This document shows positions 10,674-62,253 of a stretch of 64,000 nt of DNA, piece by piece. The notes below the pieces were generated by a model. It was given only the letters and a program-made list of their open reading frames with translations. It ran no database searches and was not told the origin of the DNA. The DNA lies in NCBI GenBank assembly GCA_020632415.1, contig JACKFO010000002.1, positions 386,732-450,731 of the forward strand, written 5' to 3'. This stretch comes from Candidatus Nomurabacteria bacterium (lineage in GTDB: Bacteria; Patescibacteriota; Patescibacteriia; UBA1558; GWA2-36-10). A program made the translations under genes and the position numbers. Each line of letters begins with the position of its first letter. The stretch's first letter is position 1.

Positions 10674-11192
10674 TTATTTCTTTTCTTTGACAGCATTTAA
10701 AACGCCAACCAAATTACGTAAATTACCTTGTAAAACACCAACGATTCCAGAAATTGGAGCTTGCATTGTACCAACCAATTTGGCCAATAATTGCTCTTTG
10801 GAAGGAAGATTAGCAAGTTTTTTAACCATTTCTGGCATAATAATTTTACTTTCTAATACTCCGCTACCCATTTCTAAGTTTTCGTTTGCTTTGACGTATT
10901 TATTTAAAACGCTTACTGCAGAAATTTCATCTTCAAAAGAAAAAGTTGCTGCAATGTTACCTTCTAAATTATCAATACTTTCTACGCCCTCTAAATCCGC
11001 TAAGGCTTTTTTTAACAAGGTTTTTTTGATAACCAAGTATTCTCCGCCGGTACTTTTTAATTCATTTCTCAAAGCTTCAATTGTTTTTACTGGCAAACCT
11101 TTGTCAGCTGAAAAAATAACCGATTTACTTTGATCAATTTTATCCTTGATACCTTGCAAGGCTTCCTGTTTTTGTTCTTTAGTTTTTGGCAT
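10674..11192 (-). CDS. rplJ: 50S ribosomal protein L10
   Basis: 172 aa, immediately upstream of rplL; typical L10 N-terminus. Confidence 0.9.
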   Translation of the reverse strand: MPKTKEQKQEALQGIKDKIDQSKSVIFSADKGLPVKTIEALRNELKSTGGEYLVIKKTLLKKALADLEGVESIDNLEGNIAATFSFEDEISAVSVLNKYVKANENLEMGSGVLESKIIMPEMVKKLANLPSKEQLLAKLVGTMQAPISGIVGVLQGNLRNLVGVLNAVKEKK

Positions 11193-11362
11193 ATTATTAT
11201 ATTAAAAAATCTGCGTTATTTACCGCAGACAATGAAAATTCAAAAGATTTCTCACCTCGGCAGGATTTATATTTTAGCTAATTTTAGCTAAAAAACCTAC
11301 TATCTTTGGTAAATTAAACTATATTGTGTAAACATTATATACAAAAAATATCTTTTTGTCAA
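11193..11362 (-). promoter_or_regulatory. rplJL promoter (TTGACA-17-TATAAT) and L10-type leader with terminator-like attenuator hairpin
   Basis: Minus strand: TTGACA (revcomp 11357-11362), 17 nt, TATAAT (revcomp 11334-11339). About 130-nt leader ending in hairpin TCTGCG/CGCAGA (11210-11229) plus U6, about 10 nt before the rplJ ATG. Confidence 0.55.
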
Positions 11363-37110: not shown

Positions 37111-37881
37111 ATGTCTACTTTTCCTGCACTGCACCTTGCTCCTGTTACCAGAAGCAAAAACGTCGCGCTACTGTTTCTAGCTGGCCTATGGTCAGTCGCT
37201 GAAGTCTGGTCTGAATGGCAACAATTAGCCGCAAAAAGAGGCTACGGAAGCTGGGCGCTAACCCTAAAACCCAAAACAAGAGCAACGTCACTCAAAGATT
37301 ACGCGTTATACGTCTTGGACTTTCTCAAGGAGCCTGAAGGACGCGGCACCAACCCTGTGATCATCGGGCACTCCATGGCTGGATTAGTGACGCAAATGGT
37401 CGCTGAACATTACAATCTCCCTGGCGTGGTTCTGCTCAATAGCGCCGCTCCAGCCGGAATTAGTAATTTTAGCCTGCCTTTAGCCTTACGCATTTTTCCA
37501 TATCTCAAAAGCATCTTGGGCAATGAGTTATTCATGCCGAGCTTAAGAGACTCCAAGGCTCTCTTATTCAACAATCTGGGCAATGTCACAGCTGAAGTGA
37601 TGTCAGCCTATCACCAAGAACTAGTACCTGATTCTGGAAAAGCAGCCAGAGAAATCATCCTGGGAACAGTAGCAGTCAAGCACACTTACTGCCCAACACT
37701 GATACTTGGTGGTAGCCAAGATCGAATTCTGCCTACCAGAATTCAAAGAAAACTAGCCACCAAATACTCCTCCGCCATCTATCTGGAAGTAGACCACGGG
37801 CATGTGACAATGTTAGAGCCTAGCTCTGACCTCGTTCTGCACGCGATCTTAGATTGGACCGAAAAACTCCCGCCTCTTTGA
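37111..37881 (+). CDS. Alpha/beta-hydrolase, GC-rich (probably horizontally acquired)
   Basis: GHSMAG nucleophile elbow; about 48% GC in the first 60 nt against about one-third elsewhere; own promoter-like TTGACA upstream and AGGAG SD; TGA stop; opposite strand to all neighbours. Confidence 0.65.
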   Translation: MSTFPALHLAPVTRSKNVALLFLAGLWSVAEVWSEWQQLAAKRGYGSWALTLKPKTRATSLKDYALYVLDFLKEPEGRGTNPVIIGHSMAGLVTQMVAEHYNLPGVVLLNSAAPAGISNFSLPLALRIFPYLKSILGNELFMPSLRDSKALLFNNLGNVTAEVMSAYHQELVPDSGKAAREIILGTVAVKHTYCPTLILGGSQDRILPTRIQRKLATKYSSAIYLEVDHGHVTMLEPSSDLVLHAILDWTEKLPPL

Positions 37882-49233: not shown

Positions 49234-50055
49234 ATGACCATTAAGCAAATACTACAAAAATATTATTCTCAAAAACTAGCTTTAGAACAAACAGAAATTG
49301 ATCTTTTGCTAGCTTTAGCTTTGCATAAAAAAATTGAGTATCTTTACAAAAATCCCGAAAAAGAACTAGCAATTTCTACCAAAAAAGCTTTTCAGAAATT
49401 AATAAGGCTCAGATTAGCAAATTGGCCAATAGCCTATCTACAAAAGAAAAAAGATTTTTTTAATCTCAAATTTTTGGTTAATCAAAATACTTTAATCCCC
49501 CGTCCAGAAAGTGAAATGCTAATTGAAGAAGCTTTAAAATTTTTAAAAAATAAAAATAATTTAAATATTTTAGATCTTGGAACTGGCTCTGGAGCCTTGA
49601 TTATAACTCTTGCCAAAAATAATCAGCAACAAAATTATTTTGCAACAGATATTTCTAAAAAAGCATTAAAAGTAGCAAAAACCAATGCTCGCAAACATAA
49701 AGTTAAAATTAATTTTACACATTCAAATTTACTAAACAAAGTTCCTCAAATTAAATTTGATTTCATCATCGCTAACTTACCATATTTGACAACAGCTCAA
49801 ATGAAAGAGCCAAGTATCAAAAAAGAGCCACGCTTGGCTTTGCTTTCTGGTCAAAATGGTTTAGATCACTATCGAGCTTTACTAAAAAATTTAAAAAAAC
49901 ACCTCTCAAAACATTATCTAATTTTACTAGAAATTGACCCTGAACAAAGTGCTGAAATCAAAAAAATAATTTCTCAATATTTAAGTAAAGCAAAAATAGA
50001 GATTCAAAAAGATTTAAACTCACTAGATCGCTTAGTAAAAATCTCTCCAAAATAA
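49234..50055 (+). CDS. prmC: Release factor glutamine methyltransferase PrmC (HemK)
   Basis: DLGTGSGA SAM motif and NLPY (NPPY-type) motif; start overlaps the prfA stop. Confidence 0.85.
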   Translation: MTIKQILQKYYSQKLALEQTEIDLLLALALHKKIEYLYKNPEKELAISTKKAFQKLIRLRLANWPIAYLQKKKDFFNLKFLVNQNTLIPRPESEMLIEEALKFLKNKNNLNILDLGTGSGALIITLAKNNQQQNYFATDISKKALKVAKTNARKHKVKINFTHSNLLNKVPQIKFDFIIANLPYLTTAQMKEPSIKKEPRLALLSGQNGLDHYRALLKNLKKHLSKHYLILLEIDPEQSAEIKKIISQYLSKAKIEIQKDLNSLDRLVKISPK

Positions 50056-50080
50056 AACCCGTCTTCCTCCAAAAGACGGG
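50050..50080 (-). terminator. Minus-strand intrinsic terminator at the edge of the GC-rich island
   Basis: CCCGTCTT-CCTCCAA-AAGACGGG; on the minus strand the hairpin is followed by UUUUAUUUU. Confidence 0.6.
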
Positions 50081-50083
50081 CGC

Positions 50084-50400
50084 TTAAACCCAAAATTCCT
50101 GTAGTTGTCGAGATCCTTTAGAGTTCAGATTCCAGGAATGCACGACATTGCTCCTCACTACTCAAGAGAAAATAGAAAGCTACGTTACTGACTCGCTCTT
50201 CCACAGAAAGCGAAAGTCCCGTGATCACAAGACTAACAGCTTCTGTTGCTGTCACGACATTCTCCTGGAAATGCCGGCGAGCCGAAACAAAGATCTCAGT
50301 TCCTCTTTCCCCCATCCCCCGTAATAGCGCCTTCAAAGTGCCGCTAAGTGAAGACAGGTCTGGGGGTGGCGAATGAGCTTGCTGACACATGGTCATCTCC
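50084..50400 (-). other. GC-rich (about 50%) 320-nt island flanked by terminators; candidate structured ncRNA or foreign small gene (contains the 92-aa ORF 50118..50396)
   Basis: Local GC far above the genome background; multiple overlapping ORFs in several frames, as expected when stop codons are scarce; transcript boundaries are defined by terminators at 50050-50080 and 50424-50460. No match to RNase P, tmRNA or SRP consensus could be confirmed by eye. Confidence 0.3.
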
Positions 50401-50423
50401 TTTCGAATTTGGGTTGTGGAAAG

Positions 50424-50460
50424 ATCAAAAAAGCCTCTAATTCTATTAGAAGCTTTTTTT
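50424..50460. terminator. Bidirectional terminator between the GC island and the DUF3048 gene
   Basis: AGCCTCTAA-TTCTA-TTAGAAGCT (8 of 9 bp paired) flanked by A6 and T7. Confidence 0.6.
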
Positions 50461-50480
50461 GCAAAAATGTCAAATTTTAT

Positions 50481-51515
50481 TTACTCAATAATTTTATCTA
50501 AACTATCGACAATCTCTACCCAAGTTTGTCCTGGAACCAAAGGAATCTCTTGGCCTTCGTTAGTAAAAAATTGCGTACGGTTATTATCTTTCTTCCAAAC
50601 TCCGCTAGTCTTGCCAAAGCGATTATAAACAATCGCTGTCCCACCAGAGGCAGTATCCATTCCTCGACGCTCCTGATCAATCAAATGACTCTCAATTACT
50701 TGAACAATGACATTATCAGCTTGCAATTGTTCACCGGTATCAGAGACTTGTTTTTCTTGATTGCGCCAACGTTGATAAATATTCAGAGCTTGACTATATT
50801 TCCAAGTGACCTGATAGTTCTCACTAGAAAAATTAACGATAAAATTTGGAATATAATCGGCAAGCAAATCTGTTTCCACAAAATTCCAAGTTGCAAAATC
50901 TAAACTAGTTGTCGCGACGTTTTTCCATTCTTTGAGTCTAGAAATATTACTAGCTGAAGTAAAAACATTATGCGGAGCATCTAGATTGTTATCTCGCCAA
51001 AAATAAATCTCGCCGGCACCAATCTGATCAATGTTTTCAAAATCATAATCATTGATCACACTCAAAGCTTGAGGGCTGCCGCCAACGTGCATATATACCC
51101 CACCATATTCTTCAGCCCAGTCCATAAAATAATTACGAGCTGATCTAACTGGTCCGATTTTATCCACGGCTATTTGACTATCAAAAACAGCTAACAAGCG
51201 AGTGATGTTTGCTTCTGCTAAAGCTTCGTAAACAATATCTGCCTGATCTACTCCAGCGCTATAAGGTAAATCATAAGAATTATCAATCATCACGCTAATT
51301 GGAAAAAAATCAAATTGCTCTTGATCTAGTACTCTCCCATTCAAAGGATGTCGTAAAACAAGTTCTTGATTTGATTCTTGATTTTGATCTGCGTCTAAAT
51401 TTAATTGCCTTCCATCTCTAAATAAACCACTTAAACCAAAAACAATCAAAATAACTGCCAAAATAATGGCAGTTATTGAAAATAATTTTTTAAAATTAAA
51501 TCTTAACATCAGCAA
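50481..51515 (-). CDS. DUF3048-family secreted/membrane-anchored protein (YerB-like)
   Basis: N-terminal TM helix; PISVMIDNS...RLLAVF...IGPVRSARNYFMDWAEEYGGVYMHVGGS pattern typical of DUF3048; 344 aa. Confidence 0.55.
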   Translation of the reverse strand: MLMLRFNFKKLFSITAIILAVILIVFGLSGLFRDGRQLNLDADQNQESNQELVLRHPLNGRVLDQEQFDFFPISVMIDNSYDLPYSAGVDQADIVYEALAEANITRLLAVFDSQIAVDKIGPVRSARNYFMDWAEEYGGVYMHVGGSPQALSVINDYDFENIDQIGAGEIYFWRDNNLDAPHNVFTSASNISRLKEWKNVATTSLDFATWNFVETDLLADYIPNFIVNFSSENYQVTWKYSQALNIYQRWRNQEKQVSDTGEQLQADNVIVQVIESHLIDQERRGMDTASGGTAIVYNRFGKTSGVWKKDNNRTQFFTNEGQEIPLVPGQTWVEIVDSLDKIIE

Positions 51516-52316: not shown

Positions 52317-53411
52317 CTAGCTATTACGCATTTTTATGCTCTCAGCGATTCCCAGAGCAATCATCACGGCCCACATTGAACTGCCACCAGCCGAAAGCAA
52401 AGGCAAAGGAATTCCAGTCACCGGAGAAATCCCCATATTCATTCCAATGTTAATAAATAATTGAACCAATAGCATGCCAATGACTCCTAGGATAAAATAG
52501 GCCGCAAAATTATCCTGACTCTTACGCATAATCAAAGAAAGGCGATAAAAAATAAAAGTAAAAACCGCTAAAACCAAAGTCACACCTAAAAAGCCCAAAT
52601 CTTCAGCAATCACAGCAAAAATAAAATCCGTTCCTGGTTCTGGCAAAAAATGCAAATTACTTTGTGAGCCCAAAGCTAATCCGCGACCAGTGAATTTTCC
52701 AGAACCGACGGCGACCATTGATTGAATTACATTATAACCATCGCCCATTGGATCTAAACTTGGATTTAAGAAAGTTAAAATTCTAGCTTTCTGATAATCT
52801 TCAAATAACCAAAACCAAGCAACTGTCACAACTCCTACAAAAGAAGCTCCTAGGGCAAGAAGATGTTTTCTTTGAATCCCCGTAAACAATAACATCACCA
52901 CCCAAGTGCCCAACAAAACTAAAGCTGAGCCCAAATCAGGCTGCAACATGACCAAGGCCACAAAAACAAAAGTAGCAAGTCCTGAAAAAAAGATATGACG
53001 AAATAGCTTAAACTCTTGACCATGCTCTGAAAAATAACGAGCTAAAAATATCACTAAGGCAATTTTGGCAAATTCTACTGGCTGCAAACTAAAACCGGCA
53101 ATTCTCAGCCAACCAGTAGTTCCATTAACTTCTGTACCAAAAAGTAAGAGTAAGAGTAAGACTAAAATAAAAAAATAAAAAATAACTTTTGCATAAGTAA
53201 GCCAAAGGCTATAATTCAATTTAGCAAACAAAAAAAATAGTGCTAGACCTGACAGGGCAAAAAAGATTTGCTTTTTGAAAGTCAGAAAATCACTATTTTC
53301 AATATTTAAATTCAAACTATACAAAATGCTGCAACTTAAAATCAGTAACACTCCCAAAGCCAAAAATAAAAACCAATCTAGTTTTTGCCAATTTGCTAAA
53401 ACATTTTTCAT
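52317..53411 (-). CDS. ftsW: SEDS-family peptidoglycan glycosyltransferase FtsW/RodA
   Basis: 10-TM SEDS architecture with the conserved periplasmic loop GSALVLLGTW...PDLG and C-terminal GGSS; 364 aa. Confidence 0.8.
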   Translation of the reverse strand: MKNVLANWQKLDWFLFLALGVLLILSCSILYSLNLNIENSDFLTFKKQIFFALSGLALFFLFAKLNYSLWLTYAKVIFYFFILVLLLLLLFGTEVNGTTGWLRIAGFSLQPVEFAKIALVIFLARYFSEHGQEFKLFRHIFFSGLATFVFVALVMLQPDLGSALVLLGTWVVMLLFTGIQRKHLLALGASFVGVVTVAWFWLFEDYQKARILTFLNPSLDPMGDGYNVIQSMVAVGSGKFTGRGLALGSQSNLHFLPEPGTDFIFAVIAEDLGFLGVTLVLAVFTFIFYRLSLIMRKSQDNFAAYFILGVIGMLLVQLFINIGMNMGISPVTGIPLPLLSAGGSSMWAVMIALGIAESIKMRNS

Positions 53412-54301
53412 AAACTAAAACGATCTGAATTCTCTGGCAAAATACTATCTGATTTAAAATTAGTCTGATCTAGCCAATTAACATCTACTTTTATTTCCGC
53501 TTTAGTTATTCTGGATAAATCATTGAGCCAAACTGCTTCCAAATCTTTATTCTCCAAAGCCTGCCAATCCTCTACTCGTAAAGTATTAATAGCCACCAAA
53601 CGGTCAATGTTATACAGGGCAATTTGAAAATCACTTTGCCATAAATTATATAAAGACAAATTTTTAGCCTGCCAAGTCACTTTAGCTGGAATATCTATTC
53701 TTTCTTCATTGATAGTTTGGACACTTGGCCCTTGATAACGAATATTTTCTATCTGCCAATCCAACTGTGGACTGTCGTTTTCAAAACGACGCCAAGCCAG
53801 ATCCAAAACTTCCACCTCAACGGTTTTGATCACTCCTACAAAAGAAAAGCCTAATTTTAATAAAAATTTATCTTGTGCTGGGTTTAAAAAACTATATTGC
53901 CTTTCTTGTGGTTCGCCATTAACAATAAAACGATATTCTAAATTGGTCACTGCCCAATCAGTATTTGGATTTTTTATTGTTGCTACCAGATTATAAAGCC
54001 TTCCGCTCACTGGCAAAACTTGAGCTGAGCTAATCGCAATCGTTTGCGGCTGACGTTGTTGATGATAAGTCTGCCAATCAAAATTTTTACTCAAAGCCTG
54101 AGACCATTGGTCCAAGCGTGGACCACCTAAATAGCTACTTAAATTAGCCAAGAAAAAAACATAAATAAAAACCAATAACAAAATCCCTAAAGTCCAAATT
54201 GCTTTACTAATTAATTCTTTATGCGTTAGCCACCAATATCCTCTTTCTAAATCTTGATCGCTTACTGGTTGATAGTCTTCCATAAATATATTATACCCCA
54301 A
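53408..54301 (-). CDS. Membrane-anchored hypothetical protein translationally coupled to ftsW
   Basis: 297 aa, one N-terminal TM helix and a large extracytoplasmic domain; its stop overlaps the ftsW start (ATGA). Confidence 0.4.
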   Translation of the reverse strand: MGYNIFMEDYQPVSDQDLERGYWWLTHKELISKAIWTLGILLLVFIYVFFLANLSSYLGGPRLDQWSQALSKNFDWQTYHQQRQPQTIAISSAQVLPVSGRLYNLVATIKNPNTDWAVTNLEYRFIVNGEPQERQYSFLNPAQDKFLLKLGFSFVGVIKTVEVEVLDLAWRRFENDSPQLDWQIENIRYQGPSVQTINEERIDIPAKVTWQAKNLSLYNLWQSDFQIALYNIDRLVAINTLRVEDWQALENKDLEAVWLNDLSRITKAEIKVDVNWLDQTNFKSDSILPENSDRFSL

Positions 54302-59978: not shown

Positions 59979-60047
59979 GTATTGACAAATTAGTAAATAT
60001 ATTGTATTTTAAGATATTCACAGCACCTCTCAGGAAAGGGACCAATA

Positions 60048-60296
60048 ATGAATGAGCAAAAAACCTCCTCTCCCGCGCCCAAGCCGGAAACTCCGAAGAC
60101 CCCTGGAACTAAGGTCGACTTGGAACCCATCCGTCGTCTCTTGGACGAAACCCAAAGGTCCGTCGACAACAACAAGGGTCTCCAGGACGTCCGCCGCCGA
60201 CTTGGATGACCGCACATCGCCCATTCCACCGCAGGACCCAGTAAACCAACGACATTCCACGTCGTTATGCTTTACCGGGTTCTTTTATTTTTGACT
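60048..60296 (+). other. GC-rich (about 55%) 250-nt island upstream of the thrS leader; possible small protein (53-aa MNEQKTSSPAPKPETPKTPGTK...) or ncRNA
   Basis: Sharp local GC rise; three overlapping ORFs (60052..60294 +, 59990..60229 -, 60030..60260 -); an SD-like AGGAAAGGGA precedes the ATG at 60048; candidate -35/-10 at 59983-60020. Confidence 0.25.
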
Positions 60297-60487
60297 AATT
60301 TTTCGCTTGGCGCTATACTGATTAGGCTAGATAAATGATTGGAATAGCTACCAACTATTCTACCTGCTTAAGTCAGGCATCTAATCAGACTAAATTTATC
60401 AGTCAATTCAATAAATTAAGTAAAACATTTGGGTGGAACCGTCTACAAATTGTGGACCCCAAGGCTAATTAGTCTTGGTTTTTTTAA
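60291..60487 (+). promoter_or_regulatory. thrS promoter (TTGACT-17-TATACT) and T-box riboswitch leader (antiterminator/terminator)
   Basis: TTGACT 60291-60296 and TATACT 60314-60319. Stem I candidate GATTAG...CTAATC (60320-60387) containing ACC-A and ACU-A Thr codons. T-box sequence TTGGGTGGAACCG (60429-60441) forming an antiterminator: helix A1 TTGGG/CCCAA, 7-nt bulge UGGAACC, helix A2 GTCTA/TGGAC. Overlapping terminator CCAAGGC...GTCTTGG (60459-60478) plus T9. Confidence 0.65.
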
Positions 60488-60501
60488 ACCTCAAAAAATA
60501 T

Positions 60502-62253
60502 ATGGAAGAAGAAAAAATATTTAAAGTCCGCCACTCGCTAGCTCACATTTTAGCAATGGCGATCTTAAGAAAATTTCCTGACGCCAAACTTGGTGTCGGA
60601 CCAGTGATAGAAAATGGATTCTATTATGATTTTTTATTGCCAGAAAAAATTTCTGACGCTGACTTAGCTGGTTTAGAAAAAGAAATGAAAAAAATCGTTA
60701 AAGAAAAAATAGAATTTAAAAAATCAATTGCCTCTCGCACCGATGCCTTAGAAGAAGTCAAAAAAACAGAACAAAATTTTAAAACTGAATTAATCAACGA
60801 TTTACCGGAAAATGAAGAATTAAGTTTTTATCAATCCGGAGAATTCAAAGATTTGTGTCGCGGACCACATGTAAGTGATAGCTCTGAAATAAATAGCGAA
60901 GCTTTTTGCTTAACTCATCTAGCTGGCGCTTATTGGCGTGGAGATGAAAAAAGAGAAACCTTAACTCGTGTTTATGGTTTGGCTTTTGAAAGTAAAGAAG
61001 AATTAGAAGCTCACTTAAAAATGCTTGAAGAAGCAAAGAAAAGAGATCACCGGGTTTTGGGCAAACAACTTGATTTGTTTACTTTCTCTGAGCTTGTTGG
61101 TCCAGGACTTCCACTCTGGACTCCCAAAGGAACTTTGATCCGTCAAGAATTAGATGCTTTTATTTGGCAATTACGCTCACAGTATGACTATCAAAAAGTA
61201 ACCATCCCCCACATTACCAAAAAAGATCTTTATGAAGTCAGTGGACATTGGCAAAAATTTTCTGAAGAATTATTCAAAATCAACACTCGTGAAGGACATG
61301 AATTTGCGATGAAGCCAATGAACTGTCCACATCATACGCAAATTTATAATCACTTACCACGTAGCTACCGTGACTTACCACAACGCTATGCAGAGACCAC
61401 GATGGTTTATCGCGATGAACAAAGCGGCGAGTTATCCGGCCTCTCTCGTGTACGTTGTATTACTCAAGATGACGCCCATGTTTTTTGTCGAGAAATACAA
61501 GTCAAAGAAGAGGTATTAAAAATCGTCAAAATCATCCAAACTTTTTACCAAGCATTTGGTTTTGAATTAAAAATACGTTTATCTCTTCATGATCCGGCTC
61601 AAATGGAAAAATATTTGGGCGATGAAGAAACTTGGAAAAAAACTGAAAACGATTTAAGAGAATTATTAAACTCCGCTAAATTAGAATTTTCGGAAGGTTT
61701 GGGTGAAGCCGCGATGTATGGACCAAAAATAGATTTTATGGCTCAAGATTCTATCGGCCGCGGCTGGCAAGTCGCTACAATTCAGCTGGATCGTAATTTA
61801 CCGGAAAGATTCGACTTATTCTGCAATAACGAACAAGGAGAACAAGAAAGAATTGTCATGATCCACGCAGCGATTGCTGGCTCTTTGGAAAGATTCACTT
61901 CTGTGCTAATCGAACATTTGGCTGGCGATTTTCCACTCTGGCTTAGCCCCGTCCAAATCAAAATCCTAACAGTTAGTGAAAATCATGTTGAATTTTCTCA
62001 AAATTTAGCTCAAGAATTTAAACTTGCCGGTTTAAGAGTAGAAATTGATGATTCAAATGAAACTTTGGGCAATAAAATTCGCAAAAATTCTGCCGAAAAA
62101 ATTCCTTACACCTTAGTTATTGGCGATCGAGAAATAAACTCTCAAGAATTAGCCGTCAGAGTTCGCGGTCAAAAAGATCTGCTAAACATCGACAAAGAAA
62201 AATTCATTCAAAGCAGCTTGGAAAAAATAAAAAATAGAGATTTAAATTTATAA
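60502..62253 (+). CDS. thrS: Threonine--tRNA ligase (short form lacking the N-terminal TGS domain)
   Basis: Begins in the editing domain (RHSLAHILAMAI, HxxxH); class II motifs; likely ATG at 60502 (MEEEKIFK...). The track's TTG start at 60475 lies inside the terminator hairpin. Confidence 0.9.
   Translation: MEEEKIFKVRHSLAHILAMAILRKFPDAKLGVGPVIENGFYYDFLLPEKISDADLAGLEKEMKKIVKEKIEFKKSIASRTDALEEVKKTEQNFKTELINDLPENEELSFYQSGEFKDLCRGPHVSDSSEINSEAFCLTHLAGAYWRGDEKRETLTRVYGLAFESKEELEAHLKMLEEAKKRDHRVLGKQLDLFTFSELVGPGLPLWTPKGTLIRQELDAFIWQLRSQYDYQKVTIPHITKKDLYEVSGHWQKFSEELFKINTREGHEFAMKPMNCPHHTQIYNHLPRSYRDLPQRYAETTMVYRDEQSGELSGLSRVRCITQDDAHVFCREIQVKEEVLKIVKIIQTFYQAFGFELKIRLSLHDPAQMEKYLGDEETWKKTENDLRELLNSAKLEFSEGLGEAAMYGPKIDFMAQDSIGRGWQVATIQLDRNLPERFDLFCNNEQGEQERIVMIHAAIAGSLERFTSVLIEHLAGDFPLWLSPVQIKILTVSENHVEFSQNLAQEFKLAGLRVEIDDSNETLGNKIRKNSAEKIPYTLVIGDREINSQELAVRVRGQKDLLNIDKEKFIQSSLEKIKNRDLNL

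Follow-up and report, generated by a model that had tools for sequence, protein, structure and literature searches.

A GC-rich island beside prmC in a Candidatus Nomurabacteria genome is a lineage-restricted small-protein gene

The gap between prmC and a DUF3048 gene of a Candidatus Nomurabacteria bacterium is filled by a short island of GC-rich sequence, and raises the question of whether this island encodes an RNA or a protein. The window analysed here is a stretch of 64,000 nucleotides with a mean GC of 0.338; measured over 100 nt at a time, GC lies at 0.43-0.55 from 50050 to 50449, compared with 0.24-0.36 over the preceding 600 nt, which hold the end of prmC, and 0.26-0.30 just after. As a heuristic, a GC-rich island of 300-400 nt in a very AT-rich genome is a good pointer to a structured RNA, and a sequence-only reading of this DNA had favoured a divergent or novel structured RNA over the alternative of a small, horizontally acquired gene. 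That reading described the locus correctly in several respects: the island at 50050-50460 (43-55% GC against about 25-33% in its flanks) is bounded by two hairpins, of which the minus-strand intrinsic terminator at the 3' edge has an 11-pair stem (50081..50057) followed by TTTATTTTGG, and the hairpin with A/T runs at the 5' edge has arms at 50427-50441 and 50445-50459, and between them lies a 92-aa minus-strand ORF (50118-50396), flanked by prmC and the DUF3048 gene. It was mistaken in holding that GC3 is not elevated, as the GC3 of the ORF is 0.47 against 0.278 +/- 0.067 for 62 ORFs of the window. The small gene uses 39 GC-ending codons where 21.9 are expected from its own amino acids and local codon usage (z 4.3), its GC at codon positions 1, 2 and 3 is 0.59, 0.45 and 0.47 against 0.43, 0.31 and 0.28 for the window, and its overall composition is atypical (GC 0.50 and GC3 0.47, against 0.34 and 0.28 for window ORFs). 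The feature is real and its identity ordinary: it is a lineage-restricted small-protein gene, already predicted publicly as a 'hypothetical protein'. It is highly likely that the island holds an ordinary minus-strand gene with a transcript of its own, conserved under purifying selection, and confidence in the gene and its architecture is high.

The competing explanation is that the island is a structured non-coding RNA, either a divergent RNase P RNA, tmRNA, SRP RNA or 6S RNA or a member of a new class, in which the ORF arose by chance. The locus resembles such RNAs in its length of 300-400 nt, in its GC contrast to an AT-rich genome and in being a discrete, terminator-ended unit with a hairpin on either side; furthermore, a 92-codon open frame in sequence of 50% GC is not especially improbable in a single genome (an estimated ~1% per frame). 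Nevertheless, no RNA family could be assigned. An Rfam cmscan at gathering scores, run over the whole window, returned only four tRNAs and an L10 leader and left the island without a match, and a search of the region 49950-50550 at E<=10 gave seven weak matches, none of which is near its cut-off and none of which is to RNaseP_bact_a/b, tmRNA, SRP or 6S. The best of these, sau-19, scores 27.7 bits against a cut-off of 80 and falls, as do trpB, MIR5070 and FuFi-1, on the 5' terminator hairpin. ARAGORN found no tmRNA. A plus-strand motif, GCGAAAGUCCCGUG, resembles by eye the CR-I of RNase P and was dropped, as cmscan of both strands gave no RNase P match.

Folding was considered both for the single sequence and across orthologues. 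The whole 421-nt stretch folds better than its shuffles on the minus strand (z -2.86) and does not fold beyond them on the plus strand (z -1.42). The minus-strand excess is due to the two terminator hairpins: leaving these out brings z to -0.59, a stability that 29 of 100 shuffles equal or exceed. RNAalifold on a codon-guided alignment of eight orthologues found essentially no consensus structure (-0.76 kcal/mol, z -1.3 against column shuffles), and z was 0.0 for the five closest orthologues and -0.6 for the closest pair. Over-conservation of nucleotides in the last 36 nt of the coding sequence, suspected between the window and its relative L001, was set aside because neighbouring genes hold equally conserved 40-nt windows. 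The island is without a covariance-model match and without conserved or excess structure, and unlike structured RNAs it has the substitution pattern of a protein gene, a ribosome-binding site and a conserved frame. The structured-RNA reading is rejected, and the probability left to it is negligible. The GC-island heuristic thus fails here for a conserved small-protein gene, and this correction is the main value of the analysis.

The other option of the sequence-only reading, a small gene, was the right one, and a protein match for the ORF with conserved synteny, which had been named beforehand as evidence against an RNA, was found. A search with the ORF among 5.8 billion proteins returned just one match besides the ORF itself, a protein of 93 aa with 69-70% identity. 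When 1.84 billion representatives were searched with a profile and a second, word-indexed search was added, the family grew to about 12 members of 83-93 aa, all from Patescibacteria, to which the only source name attached is 'hypothetical protein, Patescibacteria group bacterium'. Two more copies are present as unannotated ORFs beside the closest DUF3048 homologues in species-representative genomes, among which the nearest named relative is a Candidatus Komeilibacteria MAG. Scanning a genome collection with the small protein gave no match, and scanning metagenomes returned the loci L012 and L013 again and nothing else. HMMER matches to a 1995-aa ankyrin-repeat protein (E 5e-11, over seven stretches) and to a 937-aa repeat protein were judged spurious, being summed weak matches to eukaryotic repeats.

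The family member KBC40_01300 (GCA_018062885.1; P0004) and its relatives P0002, P0005-P0008 and P0010-P0013 are homologous to the window's protein at 17-70% identity, with profile E-values of 1e-25 to 1e-29 for most and weaker values for the two most divergent, P0012 (1e-14) and P0013 (8e-7). They share its length and its position, between the DUF3048 gene and convergent prmC or, on short contigs, just before prmC, and in the loci where this was examined they also share its promoter, Shine-Dalgarno and terminator layout. There is no qualitative difference between these proteins and the window's copy, which carries, together with P0002, an N-terminal extension of about six residues (MCQQAHSPPPDL). 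None of the family's proteins has been named, modelled in Pfam or NCBIfam, or tested for function.

The gene order on the contig of the 93-aa homologue is FtsW, L25, DUF3048, small gene and convergent prmC, and it is the same on the window's source contig (L002). The small gene lies directly before convergent prmC in L002 and in all ten relatives' loci with readable context, and where the contig reaches far enough its upstream neighbour is the DUF3048 gene, except in L005 and L011, where a Biotin_lipoyl gene has been inserted behind DUF3048. In neighbouring lineages, the slot flanked by the DUF3048 gene and prmC is occupied by an unrelated 63-aa ORF (L004, the Komeilibacteria MAG) or a Bro-N gene (L006). 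The window's protein resembles the lineage-specific CPR families of unknown function (Meheust et al. 2019, PMC6744442) in being short, restricted to part of the CPR and unannotated, and in lying amid core translation and cell-division genes; compared with the widespread CPR-enriched families, its family is far rarer, and its composition is unlike that of its host genome. The CPR 'dark matter' gains with it another small-protein family that has neither a name nor a structural match.

The coding sequence occupies 50118..50390 on the minus strand, with its stop codon at 50120..50118, and encodes an acidic protein of 90 aa that is predicted to be all-helical; homologues, synteny, codon bias, the open frame and AlphaFold all support this assignment. 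The first ATG of the 92-aa ORF (50396) is absent in L001 and abuts the Shine-Dalgarno sequence, so that the true start is the second, conserved ATG (50390) and the protein has 90 rather than 92 residues. Differences between the window and L001 number 17, 13 and 38 at codon positions 1, 2 and 3 (chi-square about 16), a pattern also found in the neighbouring genes, and an indel of 6 nt between the two loci is in frame. For this closest pair dN/dS is 0.14, and values of 0.23-0.51 were obtained where dS was measurable, synonymous sites being saturated between most lineages (pS 0.7-0.9). In all 11 loci the annotated frame is free of internal stops, whereas the other five frames hold 1-13 stops, with one chance exception.

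The promoter, the transcription start site (predicted near 50438) and the termination of the small gene were deduced from the conservation of sequence motifs. Together they would make up a monocistronic minus-strand unit: a sigma-70-type promoter (TTGACA-17-TCTAAT) overlapping the DUF3048 terminator hairpin, some 50 nt of leader carrying a strong ribosome-binding site, the 90 codons and, lastly, an intrinsic terminator abutting the end of prmC. The putative promoter consists of a -35-like TTGACA (50468..50473, minus strand) and, 17 nt after it, a -10-like TCTAAT (50445..50450, minus strand), which a promoter scan requiring A at the second -10 position did not list. The sequence TTGAC[AT] recurs 77-93 nt upstream of the start in all eight loci compared, and in all eight a spacer of 16 or 17 nt leads to T[AC]T[ATG][AT]T. 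The -10 element sits in the 5' arm of the hairpin at 50427..50459, the predicted intrinsic terminator of the DUF3048 gene (50481..51515, minus strand; Pfam DUF3048 5e-39, DUF3048_C 1.5e-21). This hairpin lies between an A run and a T run, has 15-nt arms that are 93% complementary and a 3-nt loop, and is terminator-like not only on the minus strand but also on the plus strand, where T7 comes after it. Given the position of the -10 element, the 5' hairpin is not only the edge of the island; it is the terminator of the DUF3048 gene with the promoter of the small gene overlaid. A hairpin of this type is present in seven of the eight loci, its arm sequences varying by lineage, and in L005 a separate terminator hairpin lies further upstream instead.

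The Shine-Dalgarno sequence GAAAGGAG (50397..50404, minus strand) precedes the ATG at 50390 by 6 nt, and either GAAAGG or (A/G)GGAG begins 11-15 nt upstream of the start in 8/8 loci. The predicted intrinsic terminator of the small gene (50047..50081, minus strand; T tract to about 50047) likewise has an equivalent in every one of the eight loci, a G+C-rich hairpin with a T run. It adjoins the stop codon of convergent prmC (49234..50055, plus strand), which encodes the release-factor glutamine methyltransferase (Pfam MTS and PrmC_N) and has prfA directly upstream of it. In L005 and L011 the extra Biotin_lipoyl gene, with a terminator of its own, stands upstream and the small-gene promoter is still there, which argues for an independent transcription unit.

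The excess of GC at third codon positions extends to the relatives. When the amino acids of each orthologue and the codon usage of the genes beside it are taken into account, the excess of GC-ending codons in eight lineages has z values of 4.3, 6.8, 4.0, 1.7, 3.7, 3.5, 2.7 and 4.5, so that it is clear in seven and marginal in the eighth. Since the excess is seen despite complete turnover of synonymous sites, something maintains it. It is possible that the transcript has a dual function, the mRNA of the small protein being under a second selection, as an RNA, that keeps GC3 high; such selection might favour stability, a regulatory fold or a target for antisense transcripts reading through from prmC. 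This would account for a GC3 excess that all eight lineages show in spite of saturated synonymous sites, and each of the eight coding regions does fold more stably than its synonymous-codon shuffles (z -0.6 to -2.8; the mean is -1.7). In addition, the plus-strand hairpin after prmC is read from the sequence as having no T tract, and T7 comes only after the hairpin at 50427-50459, so that prmC transcripts could run antisense through the small gene. However, a dual function is improbable for several reasons: first, the folding effect is modest and overlaps that of the controls, 24 segments from the window's other genes with a mean z of -0.42 and an sd of 1.09. Second, the window's own copy is unremarkable (z -1.04 against synonymous-codon shuffles, -0.59 without the terminators) and no specific structure is conserved among orthologues. 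Third, the GC enrichment reaches into the 3' UTRs, which have a GC of 0.32-0.64 against 0.10-0.39 for typical intergenic sequence, and a regional force fits this better than codon selection or RNA structure.

A further explanation for the composition is that the gene is a recently acquired foreign gene, the cargo of a mobile element or phage, that has not yet adjusted to its host. GC that is atypical at all three codon positions, a family that is very rare, and a slot that is variable (the 63-aa ORF in L004, Bro-N in L006, Biotin_lipoyl in L005 and L011) would be in keeping with this. Nevertheless, a recent import is very unlikely: the position and the promoter and terminator layout are shared by lineages that are saturated at synonymous sites and only 50-70% identical in their flanking proteins, the window holds no meaningful flanking direct or inverted repeats, integrase or paralogue, and there is no PHROG, PADLOC or BFVD match. 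The gene was already in its place when these lineages split. An ancient acquisition by the ancestor of the clade is compatible with the evidence and a recent one is not. The description 'horizontally acquired' from the sequence-only reading is therefore apt only if it is taken to mean an old accessory gene whose slot is variable and which is still exchanging alleles; the variable slot, the atypical composition and one allele replacement speak for it in this sense, while saturated synonymous sites at a shared position contradict a recent import.

The allele replacement is found between L012 and L013, two almost identical genomes at this locus, in which PrmC is 97%, the DUF3048 protein 96% and the flanking DNA 87-100% identical, whereas the small protein is only 53% identical. 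The divergence is confined to a block of ~265 nt with sharp edges and 40-67% DNA identity (83% in one 30-nt window), which begins immediately behind the promoter hairpin and ends about 30 nt short of the stop codon. Both alleles are intact, keeping the ribosome-binding site, the frame and the conserved residues of the family, and within the block dS is 0.93 and dN/dS 0.41. Silent sites and leader have diverged together with the protein, which indicates that the block is a replacement by a distant allele (or a product of local hypermutation) and not the result of point-wise positive selection. The opposite pattern occurs between L005 and L017, where the small protein is 75% and PrmC 59% identical, and over all pairs the identity of the small protein correlates with that of the flanks at a Spearman coefficient of 0.31-0.42, compared with 0.73 for flank against flank. 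Given that the other ratios are within reach of saturation, only the L012/L013 event is counted as firm.

Pherotype and immunity loci such as comC and agr carry long-lived divergent alleles in otherwise near-identical genomes. The sharply bounded L012/L013 block with its near-identical flanks bears no more than a resemblance to loci of this kind, and membership among them is not claimed: the small gene shows such alleles in a single pair, its product lacks a signal peptide, and none of its neighbours is a sensor, processing, toxin or export gene.

An exchange of alleles by homologous recombination between related lineages, which is a comparatively weak inference, would offer a reason for the regional GC enrichment. 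In bacteria, GC3 tends to be raised in genes that recombine, and GC-biased gene conversion has been put forward as the cause (PMC4450053). Recombination-linked conversion of this kind, or an origin outside the mutational regime of the host, would keep the island GC-rich, and one or the other appears to be the most economical reason for its lasting composition; confidence in the recombination account, which is offered as a hypothesis, is low to moderate. In its strongest form, the small gene would be a recombination-prone allelic cassette, with divergent alleles of a binding protein kept and swapped among related Patescibacteria and repeated gene conversion, not RNA structure, making and maintaining the GC island. 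This is unlikely; were it true, GC-biased gene conversion would be visible locally, at this one place in a reduced bacterial genome. A strain-specific interaction (immunity, compatibility or host contact) would perhaps be the reason for keeping such alleles. The case for anything more than an ordinary orphan gene is thin. Even so, a GC3 excess that persists despite saturation, together with a single clean allele replacement, makes the locus a possible test case for local base composition in small genomes.

The product of the gene was modelled with AlphaFold from 2 and from 11 sequences, giving a pLDDT of 86.4 and 82.3 and a pTM of 0.75 and 0.67 respectively, and the identical six helices (12-25, 28-42, 48-58, 63-68, 72-75 and 79-87). 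Foldseek found nothing convincing for this model (best E 2.4 in the PDB and 0.86 in BFVD, TM at most 0.49), and sequence and profile searches of Pfam, NCBIfam, PHROGs, PADLOC and the PDB gave no match that is consistent across members. A profile match to a BTB helix of KLHL3 (E 0.018) and matches to protein A repeats were judged to be due to chance, reflecting a short helix of the C-x-x-F-L-x-S-x-L type. No signal peptide or membrane segment was seen in the members by inspection, nine of the 11 members are acidic (pI 4.9-6.3), and a cysteine lies near the C terminus in every one. The protein would thus be soluble and acidic (pI about 5-6), folding into a bundle of six helices, with a single invariant cysteine (Cys82) towards its C-terminal end.

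Confidence in the role of the protein is low. The adjacency of prfA and prmC is unusable as functional evidence because the whole neighbourhood is syntenic by descent. The conserved positions are mostly those of a hydrophobic core (L19, L23, F34, V52, L76 and F85), unlike an enzyme active site, and a binding role is for this reason the most likely. It is suggested, as the weakest step of the account, that the small protein binds another protein as an adaptor or regulator, possibly in a thiol-dependent manner. Also conserved are E50 and a basic residue at position 38, and five members start with Met-Cys.

Comparison of two related loci, L012 and L013, identified a block at the small gene in which the two are 40-67% identical (L012:541-805 against L013:2189-2459), between flanks that are 87-100% identical. 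The edges of this divergent block are sharp and it spans the leader and most of the coding sequence of the small gene, the alleles of which are intact in both loci. Between the DUF3048 gene and prmC, neighbouring lineages carry differing cargo in this slot: an unrelated 63-aa ORF in a Komeilibacteria MAG (L004:5009-5607), a 275-aa Bro-N domain gene in a second locus (L006:2209-3130) and an added Biotin_lipoyl (BCCP-like) gene in two others (L005:5053-5580 and L011:3389-3844).

Reading of the plus strand places a hairpin 3' of prmC (50056-50090) with no T tract after it, and a T7 directly after the hairpin at 50427-50459 (50427-50466). Given this arrangement, transcripts of prfA-prmC may run antisense across the entire small gene and then terminate. 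In two related loci (L005 and L009) the hairpin 3' of the small gene is bordered by A and T runs on either side and, for this reason, looks bidirectional.

The HMMER profile of the small protein was built from two sequences and matched a eukaryotic ankyrin-repeat protein with an E value of 5e-11, summed over seven weak repeated matches. The large eukaryotic repeat proteins returned by the profile search, P0003 (1995 aa, the ankyrin-repeat protein) and P0009 (937 aa), were judged to be spurious as relatives of the small protein, given that the score is made up of many weak repeat matches, and provide an example of how repeat proteins raise whole-sequence HMMER scores.

A second GC-rich island (60010-60300, plus strand, GC about 0.55) lies upstream of thrS (60475-62253). 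On the same strand, TTGACA at about 59983 resembles a promoter element and GGAAAGGGA a ribosome-binding site; they are accompanied by a 53-aa ORF inside the island (60048-60209) and a hairpin with a T run near 60285. No matches to the island were found in Rfam at E<=1 or in Pfam, a protein search returned no homologues, its own sequence included, and the folding z was -1.36. The island could hold a further small orphan gene, or else be a leader of thrS or an RNA of an unknown kind.

A minus-strand gene (53408-54301) that lies upstream of the FtsW/RodA gene encodes a 297-aa protein without a Pfam match; related contigs carry, at the equivalent position, a 287-302-aa gene that also has none, and the product looks like a further conserved unknown of the small gene's clade. 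A candidate L10 leader (RF00557) is predicted on the minus strand at 11193-11327, upstream of a 172-aa ORF (10674-11192). This call is borderline, since its 44.3 bits barely exceed the gathering score of 44. An alpha/beta hydrolase gene (37111-37881; Abhydrolase_6, 2e-17) is the sole plus-strand gene amid minus-strand neighbours. Its composition is foreign (GC 0.48, GC3 0.48), and the gene was probably acquired horizontally.
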